From IMG/VR virus record IMGVR_UViG_3300043294_000406: a stretch of 25,802 nt of DNA; one strand, given 5' to 3'. Under the pieces are notes generated by a model. It did no database searches and had not been told where the DNA came from. It saw nothing but the letters and a program-made list of their open reading frames with translations. A program made the position numbers and the translations under genes. Position 1 is the stretch's first letter; every line of letters begins with the position of its first letter. Positions 3,198 to 14,883 of this stretch are shown one piece after another. This DNA comes from a virus.

Positions 3198-3695
3198 TTG
3201 AGGGTCAAACCGCGCCTCGTGCTGGCGTTCTCCCTGCTAGGCGCTGCGACGGTCTTCGCGGTTGCGTACTTCGTCTTCGTCTACTTCAACGTGGCATTCA
3301 CCGCCTTCCATTCAGACTTCACCAGGGCGTTTCTCGTCAATCACACCTTTGGCAACGTAGGCATGGCTTCCTTCGTTTTCTATTCACTGGCCTGCCTCTC
3401 CCTCTTTTGCTTCGGCGTCATCCGTGGCTGGAGCTTGTCGCGGTCGGTCCTGGTCGCCGCGCTCGTCTTTGGATTCCCTGCGGTGATGGTCCTGACCTAC
3501 GGCCTGCTTTGGTTCGCCCCGACCCAGATGAACCTCCACGTCACGAATTTTGCCGCGTGGTCCTACCCCGGAGGTTGCTTCTACGGCCAAGCCTGCTATT
3601 ACCTCAGTAATTGGGTCGTCCTAAGAATCGCTACCGTCTCTGAAGCCATCGCCGTCTGCGGCCTCTTCCTTCGCTCTCTGGGTGGCTCTTGGTGA
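3198..3695 (+). CDS. Integral membrane protein, 165 aa, about 4 TM segments
   Basis: Four hydrophobic stretches. The stop overlaps the next gene's GTG (GTGA). Confidence 0.7.
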   Translation: MRVKPRLVLAFSLLGAATVFAVAYFVFVYFNVAFTAFHSDFTRAFLVNHTFGNVGMASFVFYSLACLSLFCFGVIRGWSLSRSVLVAALVFGFPAVMVLTYGLLWFAPTQMNLHVTNFAAWSYPGGCFYGQACYYLSNWVVLRIATVSEAIAVCGLFLRSLGGSW

Positions 3696-6600
3696 ATCCT
3701 CGCTCCCTCTTGTGGTCTTTGTTGCTGCTTGCGATCTTCCTGGCTGTCTTGCCGTCAGTACACTCGGCCTTTGCGACTTCGACCAAGGTTCAGGACTGCC
3801 ATAATGCGGGGAGTGGTGCGACTCTGACTTGCGCTCTGGCCTCTGCGGTCACGAACGGCGATCTGCTGGTTTGCGGCCCAGGGGCCGAGTACAGTTCCGC
3901 GCCCACCTTTTCGGTGACGGATAGCATAGGGACCACTTGGGTGACTCAGTCAAGTTCCTCTCAGAGCTCCGCGTCTGGGTCGAATACCGGCTACATCTAC
4001 GAGTCCACGACGATAACGACCGGGGGGGCCAGTGATACGATCACCATACACTTCACTGCCTCGGTCCATTCGTCTGAAGTGAATTGTGCGGAGTTCACCG
4101 GCGTCTCTTCAGCCACCGCAGCTGGTTCCGCCACTCCAGGCGGTGCCACTACAGGCATAGGCTCGACGTACACGGTCCCTGTCACTTCGTACACCCCTGT
4201 CACTGGCGACTTGGTAATCGCCATCGCCTTCACGCCCAGCTGCGTCAATGTCGGCACGTTCGCCGCACCCTCGGGTTGGACGGGGTATCTCACCCTGTCT
4301 GCTGGCGCGACCGGCTCTAACACGAATTGCGATAATCCAGGCGATGATCCAGACGTCACTAACGTCGCGTTCGCGTACTTCCTGAGCTATTCATCAGGCT
4401 CGACTACCTGCGCCGGCACGGTCACACCACAGACCAAGTTTGTGACTTCGCACACCGACAAGTACGTTTCTGTCTGTTCGTACTATACCGCCGTCGTCAG
4501 CGTCACCTACCACCTGAAGCTGCATGTCATGGAGAACGGCGCGACCATCTCGACCGCGTTCGTCTTTAGCGGTAGCTGCAACGTGAACGATTCCACGATC
4601 TCGGGGAATAACGTGATCCACGGCATCACCGCTGTCGCCAGTTGCACCCCCACTATCACCGTTCAGGCTGACGGCACATACACCCGCTATCGGTTCAACA
4701 GCTCTTCCGCGTCTGCCACTACCGCAACCTTCACGACCTGCCCGTCGGGCACCTGCACGGTCATCCTCGTTCTGGACTACTACTTTGAAACGGCCCACGT
4801 CATAGACGCGAGTGTGGCGAACGGCTATAATTTCGCCACTAGCATTACCGGCCTCACTCTGACGACGACTCTAGCAGGGACAGCTGGCGCGGCGCTCTGT
4901 TCGCTTTCATTCACCGTCGCTGCCACCGACTACTGCGGCAGCTCTTCGACGTACTACTTCACCGACTACGCCGCGACGATTTCAGGCTATACGAACCCGC
5001 TTACCTGGACCGGCCACACGACCGACGCCTACCAGTTTAACACCTGTTCGCCTGTCACGACCGGCAGCCACGACACCATAGGCTGCCCGTATTATTACGT
5101 CCTGTACAACACGCCCTCTGCAGCTGTGTCTCAGGGTGGGAGCTATCGTTTCGCCACTCAACTGACGGCTGTGACTGTCACCGTCACTCTGTACGGTTCG
5201 ACAGGTCAGACGGGTTGCACGATCACTTTCACCGTCGCCGTAAGTGATTCTTGCGTCTCACCCATCTGGGCTGACGCTAACACGGTCTTGGGTGGCTTCC
5301 CTTCCACGCTCAGCAACCCGCCATCCGGTTATGCCTATTCCAAGGGCACCTGCGACACCGCAGAGACTACTGGCGGCAACACTCAGATTTGTTATTACAT
5401 CGAACAGTACGCCTTCACCGCTGAGATCACATACAATCCTAGCGGCAACTTCCCGTCTGGTTTGTCAGTGATTCCGACCGGTCAGTTGGGCGGTTCTTCT
5501 GGTCAGAACCTCTGCACGGTCACCACCTCCGATTCTCACACGGCTATCCATTCGTGTACGATTGATGCCGGTTCCGTCGCTACGTTCGCAGCGACATTGA
5601 CCGGCTCGGCCACAAATGTGAAGCTCTGTCGCGCCAGCTCTTGCTCCTCGCCCACAACCGTCACTCCGTCTGCTGGCGGCACTTCGAACGTGAACTATTG
5701 GCCTGAAATGAGTCAGACCTTCAAGGCGTTCACCGTGAACGGCGTATGGAATGATTTGAGCTTCACCGTCCTAGGCACCGTGTTCGGTACTCCGAGCACG
5801 ACGGTCTGCACGGGCTTCGGATGGGCGGGGAATGTCTCCACCTTCTGCTCTGGCGCTGCCGATAACGGCACCACTCTGTATGTCGTAAGGGATATCATCT
5901 TCGGCGGTCTGCCTCCCCCTCATCAGAAGTGGGTCGGGTGCCTTTCAGGTACGAACTGTGTGGTCGCTGTCCCCATCACCGCAGGGAACGTCTTCAATCT
6001 GTATTTCTACGCCGAGTACTCGAACACCTTCACGGCTACGCCCAGCGCGAATTGGGATGCTGGCCGCAACGTGAGCCTTTCGGCTATGATTCACGGTCAG
6101 CAGGTCATCCCTGGCGGTTGCTCTTGGATTCCGAGTGCTGGCACGAGCACCGCCTTGTACTGCACGGTCTATACCGATGTCAACTATGTCGTTGGCTGCC
6201 CCGACTCGAATATAGTCTCTGGCACGGTCTGGTCCTCTGGCGAGTGGGTTTCCGTGAAGATCACTACGGTCGATGGTTCATACGGCTGCACCTACACCTT
6301 GCTCGCAGCGACTTCGACCACCACAACCTCAACCTCAACGGTCACATCGACGACTACAACGAGCACATCCTTGAGTTTTACAACTACGACATCGACAACC
6401 CAGACCCAGACACAGACTGAAACATCTCATACAACGACGACCGAAACAAGTTCTACGACCACCACTACTACGAAGCCGACGACGACCACAGAGTCCCTGA
6501 CCTACACCACCACTGAGAGCACGACCCTGACTCAGACACAGACTCAGACGCTCACGCAGAATTTCACGTCCACCTTCACTACCGTCCAGACGACGACCGA

Positions 6601-7912
6601 GAATGTCACTTCCAGTTTCACTACGACGCAGAACCAGACCCTGACCACGACTAGGACGACCACGTTCCCGACGACGCTCACGCAGACCCTCACGTCCACG
6701 GCGACCTATCCGACCACGATAACTCAGACCCATACCCTCACTTCGATGATAGCCACTGGGACGAAGACGATCACAAAAGCAAAGACCACGACCGAGTACA
6801 CCAACTCCACTTCGACAGGAGTCCTTCCGCCGTTCGACCCTCAGAACAACCGATACATCCCCGTCGGGACCGTCCTCTATCTCTGGTACGGCATGAACGA
6901 GACTTCATGGAAATGGACGGGTGGTCTTGGGACTTCGCATTGGAACGACACGAACCAGGGCATAGTCGTCGATACGCCGGACATCGGCTACTACGCCAGC
7001 CTGGACAACAACACCCTGGCCTGGCAGCTTTCCAACATGAAGAGCGCCGGGATCTCTGTCATAATCGCGTCCTGGTGGGGCATGGGCAACAACACGTCGG
7101 GGTCCAACCAGAGGCTTGACGAGGGGATCAACAACGCCACCCTGAACCTCTTCCGCTATGTGGAGTCCACGAAGAACCTCTGGAACTTCAGGATCGCGGT
7201 GATGGTCGAGCCCTTCAACACCACGGACCTGACAGCCGCCGATTACACGAACCTCTACAACTACGTGCAGAACACCTTCTATCGCCCCTTCAACGACATC
7301 GTCTTCTACAAGGACGGGAAGCCCCTGCTCCTGTCCTTCAACCCCAACTACCTTCCTTCCCTCCCAGCCGCCTCGGTCTTCACCTACAGGTCCGTGGGCG
7401 GGGTCCCCAACCCGGTCGACTGGTACTTCTGGGAGGGCGGAAGCTACAACGACTCCTCCGGGGGGACGGCCCAGATCCAGAACTACGAGTACGCCCCTGG
7501 GATCTCCGGGGACGGCGAGGTGGGCGCGCTCTGGCGCTACGACGACTATTACCTCTACGCGGCAGGAGGCAGGAGCGGGTACATGCGGTTCGACGTGACC
7601 GGTTCGCAGGGCATGTACAACTACGAATGGAACTACATAATCGCGCACAGGTCGGACGTGAAGTTCGTCCTCCTCTACGGCTGGAACGAGTATCACGAGA
7701 GGGTGGCCCTCGAGCCGCACGATGACCTGACGGTGGGAGGCTTCAGCGGGGTCGGGAACACAGGATACTACGTAGATACGCTGGAGAACACGCCGGACGT
7801 CGTGCCTGGCCAGCCTGGGACCGTGAACAGCTTCGCCTACTATATGGCAGGGGTTGTGGTCGTTCTCGCCATAGTTCTGGCGATCTTCGCCTACATGAGA
7901 AGGTTCAAATGA
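3692..7912 (+). CDS. Large membrane-anchored spike/adhesin (~1406 aa): signal peptide, Cys/Thr-rich beta domains, Thr-rich stalk, GH99-like endo-alpha-mannanase domain, C-terminal TM
   Basis: N-terminal hydrophobic signal ending VHSA|FA; Thr-rich stalk at ~6310-6815. GH99/GH71-like motifs LYLWYG, TPDIGYYASLD, AGISVIIASWWG, IAVMVEPF and GWNEYHE lie at ~6854-7790. The C-terminal TM is followed by RRFK. Many N-x-S/T sequons. TTG at 3689 is an alternative start. Confidence 0.85.
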   Translation: MNPRSLLWSLLLLAIFLAVLPSVHSAFATSTKVQDCHNAGSGATLTCALASAVTNGDLLVCGPGAEYSSAPTFSVTDSIGTTWVTQSSSSQSSASGSNTGYIYESTTITTGGASDTITIHFTASVHSSEVNCAEFTGVSSATAAGSATPGGATTGIGSTYTVPVTSYTPVTGDLVIAIAFTPSCVNVGTFAAPSGWTGYLTLSAGATGSNTNCDNPGDDPDVTNVAFAYFLSYSSGSTTCAGTVTPQTKFVTSHTDKYVSVCSYYTAVVSVTYHLKLHVMENGATISTAFVFSGSCNVNDSTISGNNVIHGITAVASCTPTITVQADGTYTRYRFNSSSASATTATFTTCPSGTCTVILVLDYYFETAHVIDASVANGYNFATSITGLTLTTTLAGTAGAALCSLSFTVAATDYCGSSSTYYFTDYAATISGYTNPLTWTGHTTDAYQFNTCSPVTTGSHDTIGCPYYYVLYNTPSAAVSQGGSYRFATQLTAVTVTVTLYGSTGQTGCTITFTVAVSDSCVSPIWADANTVLGGFPSTLSNPPSGYAYSKGTCDTAETTGGNTQICYYIEQYAFTAEITYNPSGNFPSGLSVIPTGQLGGSSGQNLCTVTTSDSHTAIHSCTIDAGSVATFAATLTGSATNVKLCRASSCSSPTTVTPSAGGTSNVNYWPEMSQTFKAFTVNGVWNDLSFTVLGTVFGTPSTTVCTGFGWAGNVSTFCSGAADNGTTLYVVRDIIFGGLPPPHQKWVGCLSGTNCVVAVPITAGNVFNLYFYAEYSNTFTATPSANWDAGRNVSLSAMIHGQQVIPGGCSWIPSAGTSTALYCTVYTDVNYVVGCPDSNIVSGTVWSSGEWVSVKITTVDGSYGCTYTLLAATSTTTTSTSTVTSTTTTSTSLSFTTTTSTTQTQTQTETSHTTTTETSSTTTTTTKPTTTTESLTYTTTESTTLTQTQTQTLTQNFTSTFTTVQTTTENVTSSFTTTQNQTLTTTRTTTFPTTLTQTLTSTATYPTTITQTHTLTSMIATGTKTITKAKTTTEYTNSTSTGVLPPFDPQNNRYIPVGTVLYLWYGMNETSWKWTGGLGTSHWNDTNQGIVVDTPDIGYYASLDNNTLAWQLSNMKSAGISVIIASWWGMGNNTSGSNQRLDEGINNATLNLFRYVESTKNLWNFRIAVMVEPFNTTDLTAADYTNLYNYVQNTFYRPFNDIVFYKDGKPLLLSFNPNYLPSLPAASVFTYRSVGGVPNPVDWYFWEGGSYNDSSGGTAQIQNYEYAPGISGDGEVGALWRYDDYYLYAAGGRSGYMRFDVTGSQGMYNYEWNYIIAHRSDVKFVLLYGWNEYHERVALEPHDDLTVGGFSGVGNTGYYVDTLENTPDVVPGQPGTVNSFAYYMAGVVVVLAIVLAIFAYMRRFK

Positions 7913-9513: not shown

Positions 9514-12500
9514 GTGACCCCGAACCAGAGGGCGCGGAAATCGAAGGTGCTTGCGGTTCTTGTCGTTTCTCTCTTCCTGGCGTCCGCCCTGTCTGTCATC
9601 TCTCTCGGAGGGTCATCGGCTACGGCAGCCGCCCCCACTGCGCCGGCATACGGAGGCCAGGACTTCTACTTCGGGCTGATGTCGAACAATTCCACCCTGG
9701 GTATCAGATACCCGAGCTACGCCTCTTCCACCTGGCCTAACTGGTCCTTCTGGGGGCAGTTGCAAACCGGTCTGGTCGAGCCCAATCCCGGGTCCGGTAC
9801 TACGATAGTCACCGTGTCATGCCTCCCGCCCTCGATTCAAATTAATGCCTACACGACCTGCACAGCCTCCGTCTCTGATGCCACAGGTTCCATTGCAGGG
9901 GAAGAGATAAGCTTCGACATCACATCGTCTTCAGTGCCCGCCCCTGGGGGAGCCATCGATGGCGGCGGCTACTGTAACATCTTGGTCAACAGTTGCTCTA
10001 TCAGATTCCACGGTGATGTTGTGGGCTGGGGGACTGTAGAGGCGACATACTGGGGGGGCGACATGCAGGGTAACAGCCGCAGCCAAGGTCATTTCACTAT
10101 CAATGTCCTCTCTGCTCCCTACTATGAAGGATGGTATAATTCTCTAGTCTCAGAGAGTGGCTGTTTGGAGGTCAAACCTAGCGCCGTGGTAACTCTGAGC
10201 CAAAATGTCGCCATTCAGCAGACGAACAGCACAGCGGCTGGTCAGAATGGATTCTCTATCCAAATGAATATCTTCGGCGGGGCGAGTGACCCTGGGCAGA
10301 CTGATGACTGGTTGGCTGGTTGGGATCAGGTGGTTGTCGTGGCTCTGCCACAGGGTACGAGTGGCCTATGGTACTACTCAGGGACGGTAGAGGTCTGGAA
10401 CGAGCAGGCGGGTATAGTCTTCGACGGGCCGTGGTTGAACTTCTCTACGAACCAGCCCGCTCCAGCCGCAGGATGGACCTTTGACCTCGCCGCGACTTAC
10501 AAGAACTCAACATCCTACACAATGACAGGTGGACAGATGAAGGTCTATAACGCGCTCGGAACCCAAGTCGGGAGCACGATGAATATCCCGATAGTGATGC
10601 CACCATTCCCCACGACGATACCCCCACAGGGCATGCAGTACGGCATGTTCACTCCGTTCTTCAAGTCGGCGGTCTACGAAGTCAACCTGGTCGGGCAGTA
10701 CAACGCCGCGATTGCCAAGTTCAATTCTGGGGCCGGAACAATCACCTACTCGTCAAGCGACGGCCAGGCCGTCCAGCAGTATGGGTCCGGCTTTCCCAAC
10801 GGCCTTCCATGCGGCTATTCGGCGGGGAACACAGGAGAGAACTCGAACCTGCACTACGGTGCGACCTCGGCATCGGGCAATTCGCTGGTCCAGAGTTTCA
10901 ACACGCAGGTCACCACCGCTACCATAGTATCATGCAATCCGGCCAGTGTCTCCACGGCGACCTCCATAAGCTGCAGAGCCACAGTGACGGGGTACTCGGG
11001 CACAATAACTGGCGAGACCCTATCATGGAAAACATCGGGTTCGGGCTCGTTTAGTTCGACCACCTGCATCCTGACAAGCTCAGGTTCCCCAGCGACAATC
11101 GGGTGCTCGGTATCCTATCAAGCGCCGAACAACCTCCCGTTCGCCGTGACCACTAGCTACCCAGGCGACAGTAACAACTTTGCAAGTTTCGGATATGCTT
11201 CAATAACTGGCACCCCAGGCTCCTATCAGAAGATTACTCAAAACGGCTGTGACAACCAGTACCCGACCGGCTCGGGATGGGAAGAGACGGTCGAGACGAA
11301 CCCGCAAGTGCAGGGAACTCCCTATGGTTGCGGCCAGTGGATAGACCAGCAGGACGGGTTCGTACAAAGCGTGAGCTCCACCAATAGTTCTCAGGTCGCC
11401 TATCAAGGGATCATCGAAACGCAAGACGACATCGTGTCAGGCACCGGCCTGACATTCTCCGTCCAGATGACGGACCTCAACGCAGGGTCAGGCACTATGC
11501 TCACCTTCTGGGATGCAAAGTGCGTGGACCAAGGCCTGCCGCAGAACGGCCCCCAGATCTGTTCGTCCGACGGGACTGCAGACACCGGCTCGTGGAAATA
11601 CACCATGTGGTCAGTGGGAGATATGGGCGGGAGGTTCGCGTTCATAGACCCCACTGGCGGAGTCCATCGGCTTACAGCCGCAGGAAGCACGGCCCAGGTG
11701 GACAGCGTGGAGTTCTTAGTACGGGCGAACACGAACAACACACTCCACATCTACTACAACATAGGCTCGGGTTATATCCTTGGCGCGACCTATTCCAGCC
11801 CGTCGCTGGCATGGGAGAACACTGATGGCGGGGAAGCCCTCCTCTGGGCCTCGACGAAGAACACCGCAGTCCAGTACAGCAGCTTCGCCTACTATTCCGT
11901 CTGGGCTCCCAATCAGGTGCTTGCGGAAGGGACATTCGATAACAACATGATGAACTTGGCGCGCCACTACGAGGTCATAAGCGGAGGCCCGTACTCTGGG
12001 GACGCGGTGATGACTGACACCGAAGCTCCGCCTTTGGTCGCGGCCCTGAGCGGTGGGACTGGTGGAACCGCCGCAACCCTTTACTCCGGAATGGCTCCCT
12101 CCTCGACTTTGACTTCCTTTTTGGGTCTGGGGGCCCCGAGCAGCACATGCTCAAACCCCTGTTCGGTCAGCCAGACCTTTTCAACAGGCAACACCGTCTA
12201 CTATACCCTCACCAACGGGGCGACTGACAAGCTGGTCATCCTGATTTCTACGAACCCTGCTTCGACAGCTTGGCGCACCGTCTACACCATCGTGATCCAT
12301 TCGACATGGAGCAGCTATTCCACCGGATCCAGAGTGATGTCCCTCTACCTGGGGAACGACCTTCTAGTCTCTGGCCTGAACATACATACGAACCAATCTG
12401 GCACGACCTACACGGTGACCGAGCCGTTCGGCCTTCCCGGGAACCGCTACGTCTCCCGCCACATCACGTATGTGACGAGCCTTCTGCTTTCGGAGCTTGG

Positions 12501-14883
12501 CTATGGATCTTACGTGGCTGGCGGACAGGAGAGCGGTTCGGCCCCTAACTTGGCCGTGAAGCTATCCAACTTCATGCAGGAAGACATGACCCTCTGCCAT
12601 ACGGCTAGCAACTACGCCTGCTCAGCCACGACCTACACCGAATACTACGGTGCCATGTTCCCGAGCTATGCCAGCAGCCTTTCGAGCAACTGGTATTACC
12701 AGTATAGCACGTTCCCGGAGGCATCCTTCTACGACAGACTGCCTTATGGCAATACTTCAGTCAGCTTCGGACCTCTGAACCAGTACGGCTACGGCTACTC
12801 CCCCACAACCCAGTTCGCAGCTCCCTATATCTCTAGGCTGGCGATCACCAGCTCACCAGTGCTGCTTGCGGCCTTTCCCGAAATCTACTTCTCCGGGTCG
12901 ACCATATCTGTGGATGGTGCTTGGGTGATCAGCGGCCAGAAGAACGGCTTCACGCCAGCGACCCAGGCGCTCAGAGCAGAGTACACGGCCCTGACTGGCG
13001 GGGGTCTGACTACGGCCGAGGCTCTTCTGGACAGCGCGGGCTGGGACGGGATGGGGACCAGCCTGACCGTATGTCTGTCGATCATCTGCACCGCCCAGGC
13101 CAGCTATCCCACCTATGACACGGCCACCTTCCTGGCCGCGGCCTCGGTCGTGGGCCAGATGGCCGGGACGAACTCGCGCTGGGCCAACGAGGCCCGGCAG
13201 GCTGCCGGCGTCCTGGTGGCGGCCATGTGGCCAGGGATCGGCTACATCACCAACTACAACATCCCGCAGCCTATCACCGACTGGAGGTTCGTCGGGGGAG
13301 AGATGGCGGCCTACGAGCCGTTGAACGTGGACCCGGCCTCTTACACCACGAACCAGGCTGGCCCCTTCGCCGACGTTTCAGGCTGGCTGCAGATCATGGG
13401 GATTAATGGGGTCCAGCCGCCCGAGTCTGCGGGCTTCATCCCCGTGGACACCGAAGCCACGGGACTCACCGCGCAGGCGCTCTACACGTTCCTCGAGTAT
13501 CTTCCGAACCAGCCTGCCATCAACACCTTCGGGATTGCGGGTAGCCCGCTCGGGAACGTCTCTCCCGTGGTAAGCGGCTGCAGCACCTACAGCACCGCAC
13601 TTACCGGCTACTTCCTGTTCAATCAGACCAGCTTCGGCGACTGCCAGGTGTCCTACACCACCAGGATCACGCTTCCGGCCGACATCAATTACGCTTCGCT
13701 TCAGGCCTACTTCCACGTGAACGGGACGTTCACATACAGCGGCTCAGCCCCCCAGGGCATATACGCCCAGGTCTCGCTGACCGACACCGGCGGCAACAGC
13801 TATGGTTTCGGCCAGAACATCACCTTCCTGACGCGGTCTCAGTCTCTGGACAAGGAGATCGGGGTCTCGGTTGAGACGAACCAACCACTTCCGGCAGGAG
13901 GCTATCTCCTGACTTACAGCTTCTTCTTTCAGGGCAAAGGAACCTTCGACAGGAACAGCCTTTCCCCTCTAGGTCTCAGAGACTACGTGAGGATAGACCA
14001 GGGAGCGTTCCTGCCCAACACCCTGACGTACAACTTTGTCTCTGACGCGAATTGGAACGACTTCACAGACCTTCAGTGGACCACGACCAGCGGGGGTGCT
14101 GCCAGCGTGACCAACAACTTCGGGACCAGAGGGCTGGAAATCAATCTGGCTTCCGGCAGCACTTCGAATGAGTATGACGTCGAGACCATCAGCTACCATC
14201 CAATCTATTACGGCCTCGGCACCACCTTGCGTTTTACCGGGAACATCACGGGGCAGGCTGCGTCGACCTATCTCTGTTTCGGGATTTCGACAGTCTCCGA
14301 CAACAGCAAACTGTTCTCGGCCCAGGCCAGCTATGCCGACTTCTGCGACAACTCCGCGGGGAGCGCCCTGATCGGCTTCAGGAACCAAGGTGGGGCTGTA
14401 CAAGGCTTCATCCCCAGCTCTACCGTGAACGGGAAGAACCTTCAGGTGGGCATGGAGATCGTGGGCAAGACCCTCGTCATAACCTACACCACTGCGTCGG
14501 GGTCGGCGGTGTCCGTTTCCTTCACGATGAACTGGAACACCAACAACTTCTACGTCTACTCCTACGCCACGACGAAGGCGACTTCCACCCAGCACGTCTA
14601 TCTGCTCAGCGAGTCCGTCCAGGGCGAAGGTGCCTCGGTCAGCATCGGTCCTTCGCAACCCATCACGACTACTTCGTCGTCTGCGACTACTTCCGCGAAC
14701 AACACCGCGTTTCCCACCATCACCGTCCAGAGCGCCAGCAGCGGCAACTGCCCCAAGGGCAAGGTCTGTACTGACCCGCCGTTCGACTCCACCATCGCCG
14801 CGGTCCTCGTCGTCATCCCGGTCGTAGCGCTGATAGCAGTGGTGGGTTTCGTAAAGCGCTACCTGAGCCAGACGAAGCTGTAG
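9514..14883 (+). CDS. 1789-aa membrane-anchored surface/virion protein: signal peptide, two Ig-like repeats flanking a thermopsin-like domain, further beta-sandwich domains, C-terminal TM
   Basis: Signal VLAVLVVSLFLASALSVISLGG. Ig-like repeat pair TTIVTVSCLPPSIQ...CTASV (~9796) and TTATIVSCNPASVS...CRATV (~10912). Thermopsin-like motifs at ~10165-10900. C-terminal TM IAAVLVVIPVVALIAVVGFVKR. Many sequons. Confidence 0.85.
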   Translation: MTPNQRARKSKVLAVLVVSLFLASALSVISLGGSSATAAAPTAPAYGGQDFYFGLMSNNSTLGIRYPSYASSTWPNWSFWGQLQTGLVEPNPGSGTTIVTVSCLPPSIQINAYTTCTASVSDATGSIAGEEISFDITSSSVPAPGGAIDGGGYCNILVNSCSIRFHGDVVGWGTVEATYWGGDMQGNSRSQGHFTINVLSAPYYEGWYNSLVSESGCLEVKPSAVVTLSQNVAIQQTNSTAAGQNGFSIQMNIFGGASDPGQTDDWLAGWDQVVVVALPQGTSGLWYYSGTVEVWNEQAGIVFDGPWLNFSTNQPAPAAGWTFDLAATYKNSTSYTMTGGQMKVYNALGTQVGSTMNIPIVMPPFPTTIPPQGMQYGMFTPFFKSAVYEVNLVGQYNAAIAKFNSGAGTITYSSSDGQAVQQYGSGFPNGLPCGYSAGNTGENSNLHYGATSASGNSLVQSFNTQVTTATIVSCNPASVSTATSISCRATVTGYSGTITGETLSWKTSGSGSFSSTTCILTSSGSPATIGCSVSYQAPNNLPFAVTTSYPGDSNNFASFGYASITGTPGSYQKITQNGCDNQYPTGSGWEETVETNPQVQGTPYGCGQWIDQQDGFVQSVSSTNSSQVAYQGIIETQDDIVSGTGLTFSVQMTDLNAGSGTMLTFWDAKCVDQGLPQNGPQICSSDGTADTGSWKYTMWSVGDMGGRFAFIDPTGGVHRLTAAGSTAQVDSVEFLVRANTNNTLHIYYNIGSGYILGATYSSPSLAWENTDGGEALLWASTKNTAVQYSSFAYYSVWAPNQVLAEGTFDNNMMNLARHYEVISGGPYSGDAVMTDTEAPPLVAALSGGTGGTAATLYSGMAPSSTLTSFLGLGAPSSTCSNPCSVSQTFSTGNTVYYTLTNGATDKLVILISTNPASTAWRTVYTIVIHSTWSSYSTGSRVMSLYLGNDLLVSGLNIHTNQSGTTYTVTEPFGLPGNRYVSRHITYVTSLLLSELGYGSYVAGGQESGSAPNLAVKLSNFMQEDMTLCHTASNYACSATTYTEYYGAMFPSYASSLSSNWYYQYSTFPEASFYDRLPYGNTSVSFGPLNQYGYGYSPTTQFAAPYISRLAITSSPVLLAAFPEIYFSGSTISVDGAWVISGQKNGFTPATQALRAEYTALTGGGLTTAEALLDSAGWDGMGTSLTVCLSIICTAQASYPTYDTATFLAAASVVGQMAGTNSRWANEARQAAGVLVAAMWPGIGYITNYNIPQPITDWRFVGGEMAAYEPLNVDPASYTTNQAGPFADVSGWLQIMGINGVQPPESAGFIPVDTEATGLTAQALYTFLEYLPNQPAINTFGIAGSPLGNVSPVVSGCSTYSTALTGYFLFNQTSFGDCQVSYTTRITLPADINYASLQAYFHVNGTFTYSGSAPQGIYAQVSLTDTGGNSYGFGQNITFLTRSQSLDKEIGVSVETNQPLPAGGYLLTYSFFFQGKGTFDRNSLSPLGLRDYVRIDQGAFLPNTLTYNFVSDANWNDFTDLQWTTTSGGAASVTNNFGTRGLEINLASGSTSNEYDVETISYHPIYYGLGTTLRFTGNITGQAASTYLCFGISTVSDNSKLFSAQASYADFCDNSAGSALIGFRNQGGAVQGFIPSSTVNGKNLQVGMEIVGKTLVITYTTASGSAVSVSFTMNWNTNNFYVYSYATTKATSTQHVYLLSESVQGEGASVSIGPSQPITTTSSSATTSANNTAFPTITVQSASSGNCPKGKVCTDPPFDSTIAAVLVVIPVVALIAVVGFVKRYLSQTKL

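Follow-up and report, generated by a model that had tools for sequence, protein, structure and literature searches.

A probable remote relative of thermopsin, possibly a peptidase, in an optional cassette of a giant surface protein from a peat mobile element

The thermopsin family (MEROPS A5), which includes thermopsin of Sulfolobus acidocaldarius and SsMTP and SsMTP-1 of S. solfataricus, is an experimentally proven family of acid proteases. Active family members of the SsMTP type consist of a signal sequence, a catalytic domain, repeats, and a transmembrane (TM) helix, and SsMTP-1 is insensitive to pepstatin. Membrane-anchored thermopsin-type surface proteins with immunoglobulin-like (Ig-like) repeats are already known in Sulfolobales and Nanobdella; for Saci1846, M164_1049, and the thermopsin-like surface proteins of Nanobdella, a role in S-layer docking or degradation has been proposed. 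A 2013 review left the mechanism of A5 undefined and described the family as confined to archaea, specifically to hot-acid species (Rawlings 2013, PMC3842238). The catalytic residues of thermopsin were not established; the well-conserved candidates comprised Q109, N111, Q128, N148, and E305, and the Asp residues D129, D144, D228, D257, and D302 (Rawlings 2013, PMC3842238). Here, a probable relative of these enzymes is described within P0001, a 1789-residue protein encoded in a 25,802-nucleotide stretch of DNA (IMG/VR record IMGVR_UViG_3300043294_000406), the whole of which is called the window. What is new is an unnamed, mainly bacterial sister family that lies outside curated A5, together with its occurrence as an optional module on the giant surface protein of a mobile element.

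An earlier note on this DNA had recognized five thermopsin-like motifs in the protein, and all five strings are present in the order claimed, between residues 246 and 448 of the 1789-residue open reading frame (ORF). The consensus with which the note compared them agrees with the 80% consensus of Fig. S1 in Rawlings 2013 (PMC3842238), that is, shSlQLN, aWhQsV, sNlWN, DhEllbtG.ssG, and G.DTsEss. The span assigned to the domain, 10165-10900 (residues 218-462), likewise corresponds to a folded unit, the confidently modelled strands of which run from residue 231 to residue 464.

A HMMER pass over 1.84 billion representatives gave 14 weak matches (E 3.5e-7 to 6e-4), which seeded a family profile; this profile then retrieved 59 proteins, with E values down to 5e-85. 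The window's domain scores 83.5 bits against a family hidden Markov model (HMM) built without it and covers profile positions 1-215 of 218. The family shows little or no variation at fourteen positions (S248, Q250, N252, W270, Q272, W295, G394, G406, G408, T440, E442, N445, Q460, and F462, in the numbering of P0001), and every one of these residues is kept in the window's copy. Position 293 is D, E, or Q in the family; the position of E389 is occupied by Q or T in 45 of 52 members, and that of N296 is variable across the wider family. By these sequence measures, residues 215-466 constitute a full-length member of an unnamed family, which can be summarized as SxQxN...WxQ...TxExxN. Named members come from Solirubrobacteraceae, Bryobacteraceae, Acidobacteriaceae, and Alphaproteobacteria, from metagenome-assembled genomes (MAGs) of Actinomycetota and of a peat-soil Solibacteraceae, and from a lichen fungus. 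None of the 59 proteins has a Pfam domain over the thermopsin-like region; elsewhere, the partner domains are hemopexin, ricin-B, DUF346, a STIG1-like domain, and a fucose lectin.

About 25 family members (P0011, P0032-P0064, and others) share a conserved N-terminal module of 130 residues that starts MASQWGNNSLAPG. Pfam does not recognize this module, and it lacks a signal peptide; hemopexin or ricin-B domains occupy the same place in other members.

The AlphaFold (AF2) model of the domain is an all-beta sandwich (predicted local distance difference test, pLDDT, 71; predicted template modelling score 0.72). The Foldseek search that the earlier note had proposed gave a glutamic-peptidase-like fold: scytalidoglutamic peptidase ranks first (2ifr, E 5e-5), and GH16 glucanases, YncM, and neprosin come next. 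Thermopsin and the domain, both as models, group with beta-sandwiches of the glutamic-peptidase type (scytalidoglutamic peptidase, YncM/CPAVM1, HC7, and neprosin), and the domain appears in its model to have the two seven-stranded sheets, forming a half-pipe cleft, by which eqolisins are recognized. Residues 215-466 are thus predicted to form a concanavalin-like beta-sandwich of this type, within which C217 and C433 probably form a disulfide.

The relation to thermopsin was assessed by aligning whole families. The thermopsin set was retrieved with a 63-residue stretch from Rawlings' Fig. S1, metagenome members about 30% identical were added, and every sequence in the set is recognized by the Pfam thermopsin profile, PF05317, at 207-294 bits. 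With the trimmed family alignment and these diverse thermopsins, hhalign gave a score of 33.5 (P 0.0009, probability 23%) over 167 colinear columns that cover all five motifs. Shuffling of columns gave 13.9±2.2 with a maximum of 20.5, shuffling of blocks 19.3±2.5, and the reversed alignment 13.6; a score of 33.5 was reached in 0 of 80 column shuffles and 0 of 60 block shuffles. The outcome was similar when the window's sequence was removed from the family (P 0.0011), and the untrimmed alignments gave P 0.0045. A thermopsin HMM found 37 of 52 family members at a per-sequence E below 0.05, members that are themselves interrelated.

The invariants common to both families are Q, N, W-x-Q, (N/D)-x-W, G, and T-x-E; in particular, Q250, N252, Q272, W295, T440, and E442 fall opposite Q109, N111, Q128, W147, T303, and E305 of thermopsin, and four of these (Q109, N111, Q128, and E305) belong to Rawlings' candidates for the active site other than Asp. 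The window's copy has all five of these non-Asp residues at aligned positions (Q250, N252, Q272, N296, and E442). Besides the motif blocks, their order, the shared invariants, and the fold class, P0001 and the thermopsins have a general layout in common: a signal sequence, a head domain with Ig-like repeats, and a TM helix at the C-terminus.

Several results weigh against this kinship or limit it. P0001 and the domain match nothing in Pfam, PF05317 included, at E≤1, nor in NCBIfam, and the PDB gives no match to the domain by sequence or by profile. A HMMER comparison with the Pfam thermopsin profile, which the earlier note had suggested as a check, finds nothing at E≤10, neither for the domain alone nor for any of 54 family members, while the control thermopsins pass the 25-bit cut-off of PF05317 at the scores given above. 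Against the thermopsin HMM, the window's domain alone scores -4.2 bits, below most shuffles. The hhalign probability is only 3-23% across runs; with a shallow thermopsin alignment of seven close sequences, P is 0.28-0.38, and with the family alignment extended 45 residues upstream, the score falls to 26.4 (P 0.013). Confidence in the two AlphaFold models is moderate (pLDDT 71 and 68), and the TM-scores are low (0.37-0.45). The thermopsin-invariant Asp residues D144, D257, and D302 are replaced by V292, V387, and N439 in the window, while D228 falls in an unalignable stretch; the window retains thermopsin E259, as E389, but most of the family has Q or T there. The segment PAPxGIxxYG at the N-terminus of the mature thermopsin enzyme, in which P53, P55, G57, and G62 are invariant, aligns with VPxPxxGLxSNxNYFL of the family and SAPYYEGWYN of the window only at a permissive threshold. 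The window's domain also differs from thermopsins in that it has no propeptide, lies internally between two Ig-like repeats, and comes from peat rather than hot acid.

Such results would fit a likeness to thermopsin that is not homology at all, with an unrelated concanavalin-like sandwich carrying strand motifs that are similar by chance: PF05317 does not match, the hhalign probability is at most 23%, the window's sequence alone does not rise above shuffles, and the outcome varies with alignment depth and trimming. We consider this unlikely, given five motifs in the same order at similar spacing (from Q to E, 192 residues here and 196 in thermopsin), identical invariant residues at seven aligned positions, a score 5.7-8.9 standard deviations above the two shuffle nulls, and overlapping structural neighbours of the domain and of thermopsin. 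The unnamed family is probably, with good though incomplete confidence, a distant homologue of thermopsin and not a member of A5. The description "thermopsin-like" in the earlier note can be kept in that sense, for remote homology at the family level, the fold class, and the aligned motifs; it does not extend to a PF05317 match or to the conserved Asp residues. The proteins Saci1846 and M164_1049 and those of Nanobdella are, by contrast, cellular and annotated as thermopsin family, while the window protein belongs to a mobile, virus-like element and lies outside the curated family.

Two metagenome contigs, L050 and L051 (Ga0326728_10033616 and Ga0326727_10110070), encode PF05317 thermopsins (207-213 bits) within proteins of more than 570 residues. 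The contigs have a G+C content of 64-67%, unlike the low-G+C thermopsin genes of thermoacidophiles.

Other peptidases of this fold class resemble the domain less closely. Eqolisins (MEROPS G1; scytalidoglutamic peptidase, 2IFR/2IFW/1S2B, and aspergilloglutamic peptidase, 1Y43) also have a Q...W-x-(E/Q) arrangement on neighbouring strands: Q53, W67, and E69 of eqolisin are spaced similarly to Q250 and W270-x-Q272 of the family. However, identity to the domain is only 9-10%, the domain finds no eqolisin by sequence in Pfam or in the PDB sequence and profile searches, and there is no conserved Glu about 70 residues past the Trp (E136 by sequence count); the candidates in the domain are E389 and E442. 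YncM of Bacillus subtilis (4HFS) and its relative CPAVM1 (8XAI), the latter reported to be a secreted protease that cleaves viral proteins, are 7-10% identical and are small secreted proteins, not modules of a giant anchored one. The di-glutamate peptidases HC7 (a Bacillus cereus mucinase, 8PMU) and neprosin (G3, 7ZVC) belong to the same sandwich class, but the domain matches them weakly; HC7, which cuts glycoproteins beside glycans, offers a plausible analogue for an S-layer glycoprotein target. A search of the ESM Atlas returned only unnamed clusters at 0.92, with low recognition, and was not used.

The domain lies in a part of the protein that can be absent. P0017, the sole divergent relative of P0001 (74% identity; 1296 residues), aligns by BLASTP only with residues 4-86 and 569-1789; it lacks exactly residues 87-568, with the junction between WGQ and QNG. 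The comparison indicates that the block of Ig-like repeat, domain, and Ig-like repeat behaves as an in-frame insertion/deletion cassette. The flanking repeats claimed in the earlier note are borne out as two segments of about 100 residues with four Cys each, which are related to each other (BLASTP E 2e-5 over 35 residues); the first also has a weak, below-cut-off match to the Ig-like family Big_3_5 (E 0.006). The N-terminus of P0001, as read from its sequence, is basic and is followed by a hydrophobic signal-type segment (residues 12-31), and the composition is rich in Ser, Thr, and Gly, with a Ser/Thr-rich stalk toward the C-terminus. By this reading, the thermopsin-like domain would lie outside the membrane, with an Ig-like spacer on either side, within the optional cassette near the N-terminus of an anchored, Ser/Thr-rich protein. 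Residues 569-1730 (window 11218-14700, about 1150 residues), which are conserved in P0017, have no Pfam match, including two sub-regions scanned alone at E≤10. P0003, a SprB/Ig-repeat protein and the first match of the representative search, covers only query residues 4-90 in eight stretches and was set aside as a match of repeats or composition.

What the domain does is less certain than what it is related to. We tentatively favour, as a possibility short of a probability, that it is an acid-active endopeptidase of the glutamic type. Points in favour are its probable kinship to a family of proven acid proteases, an intact conserved site, the acid habitat, the fact that the domain as a whole finds its best structural matches among peptidases, and the existence of active thermopsins laid out in the same general way. 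Because SsMTP-1 is insensitive to pepstatin, the objection that Rawlings raised to a mechanism of the glutamic type no longer holds. The proposal of a protease in the earlier note keeps its footing in kinship and fold, and loses ground with the missing Asp residues and the missing signal peptides of most relatives. Other observations also tell against catalysis. Most family members lack both a signal peptide and a propeptide, unlike secreted acid proteases, and their domain usually sits behind a lectin-type module (ricin-B, hemopexin, or DUF346); the cassette is dispensable in the close relative P0017; and in Sulfolobus, Saci1846, a protein of the thermopsin family, serves to anchor the S-layer.

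Many of these same observations would suit a non-catalytic binding head, whose conserved cleft holds a glycan or a surface protein and which serves as an exchangeable module for receptor binding or S-layer docking. Q, N, and W abound among the conserved residues, as they do in sugar-binding sites; the family's partners are of the lectin type, and the general absence of signal peptide and propeptide, the help that Saci1846 gives to S-layer anchoring, and the loss of the thermopsin Asp residues all agree with binding. The presence of the cassette in one lineage and its absence from a 74% identical relative is what a swappable specificity module would show. On the other hand, the best whole-domain structural matches are peptidases and not lectins, lectin modules are normally fused to an effector domain rather than to a second lectin, and two carboxylates, D/E293 and E442, are nearly invariant. 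We regard a binding role as a serious contender, nearly as likely as protease activity. The same two carboxylates, together with the conserved Trp and the fusions to carbohydrate-binding modules, could instead mark a glycan-active enzyme with a concanavalin-like fold (a glycoside hydrolase, lyase, or transglycosylase) in which D/E293 and E442 act as an acid/base pair on envelope glycans. This is distinctly improbable: the domain lacks the GH16-type ExDxxE motif, no glycoside hydrolase (GH) or PL family matches it in Pfam, and its kinship at the sequence level is to a protease family.

If the domain is a glutamic-type peptidase, the model and the conservation suggest how its site might be built. 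The conserved residues are mostly spaced i/i+2 on what would be neighbouring strands (S248/Q250/N252, W270/Q272, E293/W295, E389/N391, and Q460/F462), with T440-x-E442-x-x-N445 in a loop, a spacing that would place them on one face of the concave sheet, in a substrate cleft. There, a Gln and one or two carboxylates (E442, E293, and, in the window's copy, E389) would activate water, and the substrates may be surface glycoproteins, of the S-layer type, of a target cell or of the cell that carries the element. A bolder extension, which we consider rather unlikely, is that the unnamed family represents a new class of peptidases, glutamic in type (Gln/Glu) and common across acid soils and peat, that thermopsin is likewise of a Q109/E305 type and not aspartic, and that an element of peat archaea displays its copy on the particle or host surface and cuts S-layer glycoproteins during entry, exit, or transfer from cell to cell.

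Table 1. Positions in the window of the P0001 gene, its predicted parts, and a neighbouring region
Feature	Position	Strand	Residues or basis
P0001, 1789-residue protein, predicted to be a membrane-anchored surface protein	9514..14883	+	5370-nucleotide ORF
Optional N-terminal cassette (Ig-like repeat, thermopsin-like domain, Ig-like repeat), residues 87-568	9772..11217	+	BLASTP of P0001 against P0017
Ig-like repeat 1	9802..10128	+	Cys 103, 116, 154, 161; kinship to repeat 2; weak Big_3_5 match
Thermopsin-like / eqolisin-like beta-sandwich domain (predicted), residues 215-466	10157..10911	+	AF2 model, family HMM, fold matches
Motif 1, GFSIQMN, residues 246-252	10249..10269	+	S248, Q250, N252; thermopsin Q109, N111
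Motif 2, WDQVVV, residues 270-275	10321..10338	+	W270, Q272; thermopsin W126, Q128; compare eqolisin W67-x-E69
Motif 3, VEVWN, residues 292-296	10387..10401	+	E293, W295, N296; thermopsin N145, W147, N148
Motif 4, YEVNLVGQYNAAIAKF, residues 388-403	10675..10722	+	E389, G394; thermopsin E259, G263/264
Motif 5, GYSAGNTGENSNLHY, residues 434-448	10813..10857	+	T440, E442, N445, family-invariant; thermopsin T303, E305
Ig-like repeat 2	10915..11214	+	Cys 474, 487, 518, 531; kinship to repeat 1
C-terminal transmembrane anchor (predicted), single helix at residues 1761-1780 and short basic tail	14794..14853	+	Read from sequence
GH99-like C-terminal region of the neighbouring 1407-residue ORF (3689-7912)	6836-7828	+	PF16317, E 3e-5, profile positions 59-158 of 341

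The P0001 gene is present intact in 20 metagenome runs of peat or wetland from 18 studies, dated 2017-2025, and no RNA run is among the sequencing runs that carry it. Its 20 cluster members are at least 99.7% identical, and for a surface-protein gene of 5.4 kb such uniformity is unusual. Peat and wetland are usually acidic. P0001 appears to be carried by a virus-like mobile element of acidic peat, and this habitat is not a thermoacidophilic one. Protein families in the window are a cytosine methylase, DUF5131, a protein with Ig and CarboxypepD_reg domains, and a weak match to a KAP-type P-loop protein; no capsid, portal, or terminase family was found there. The P0001 gene, the domain, and thermopsin have no match in phage and archaeal-virus records by megablast and tblastn, scans of IMG/VR with the domain, P0001, and the thermopsin alignment found no relatives, and a scan of genome contigs with P0001 found no match. 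Because P0001 and thermopsins were not found in phage records or IMG/VR, the term "viral surface protein" is to be read conditionally, and a location on the virion, as first proposed, finds no backing in the window's gene content or in the viral collections searched.

The same proposal had paired the protease with a GH99 glycosidase as a "two-enzyme kit", and this pairing is unsupported: the GH99 match in the neighbouring protein reaches 23.7 bits, short of the cut-off of 33, and appears solely when its C-terminal region is scanned alone. The whole 1407-residue protein, which includes a Thr-rich stretch of about 200 residues, has no match in Pfam, and phmmer of the GH99-like region against the PDB found no GH99 and nothing relevant.

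The sister family links A5 to the fold class of the glutamic peptidases. This family, which occurs in bacteria of the soil, in one fungus, and on a mobile element of peat archaea, retains no more than Q, N, W-x-Q, W, and T-x-E, and so leaves few residues as candidates for catalysis or binding. If the domain is only a binding module, it would be an ordinary adhesin domain without a database name. For the element itself, the optional cassette, which caps a giant anchored protein on its outer side, is likely to be a determinant of the cell surface that is acted on.

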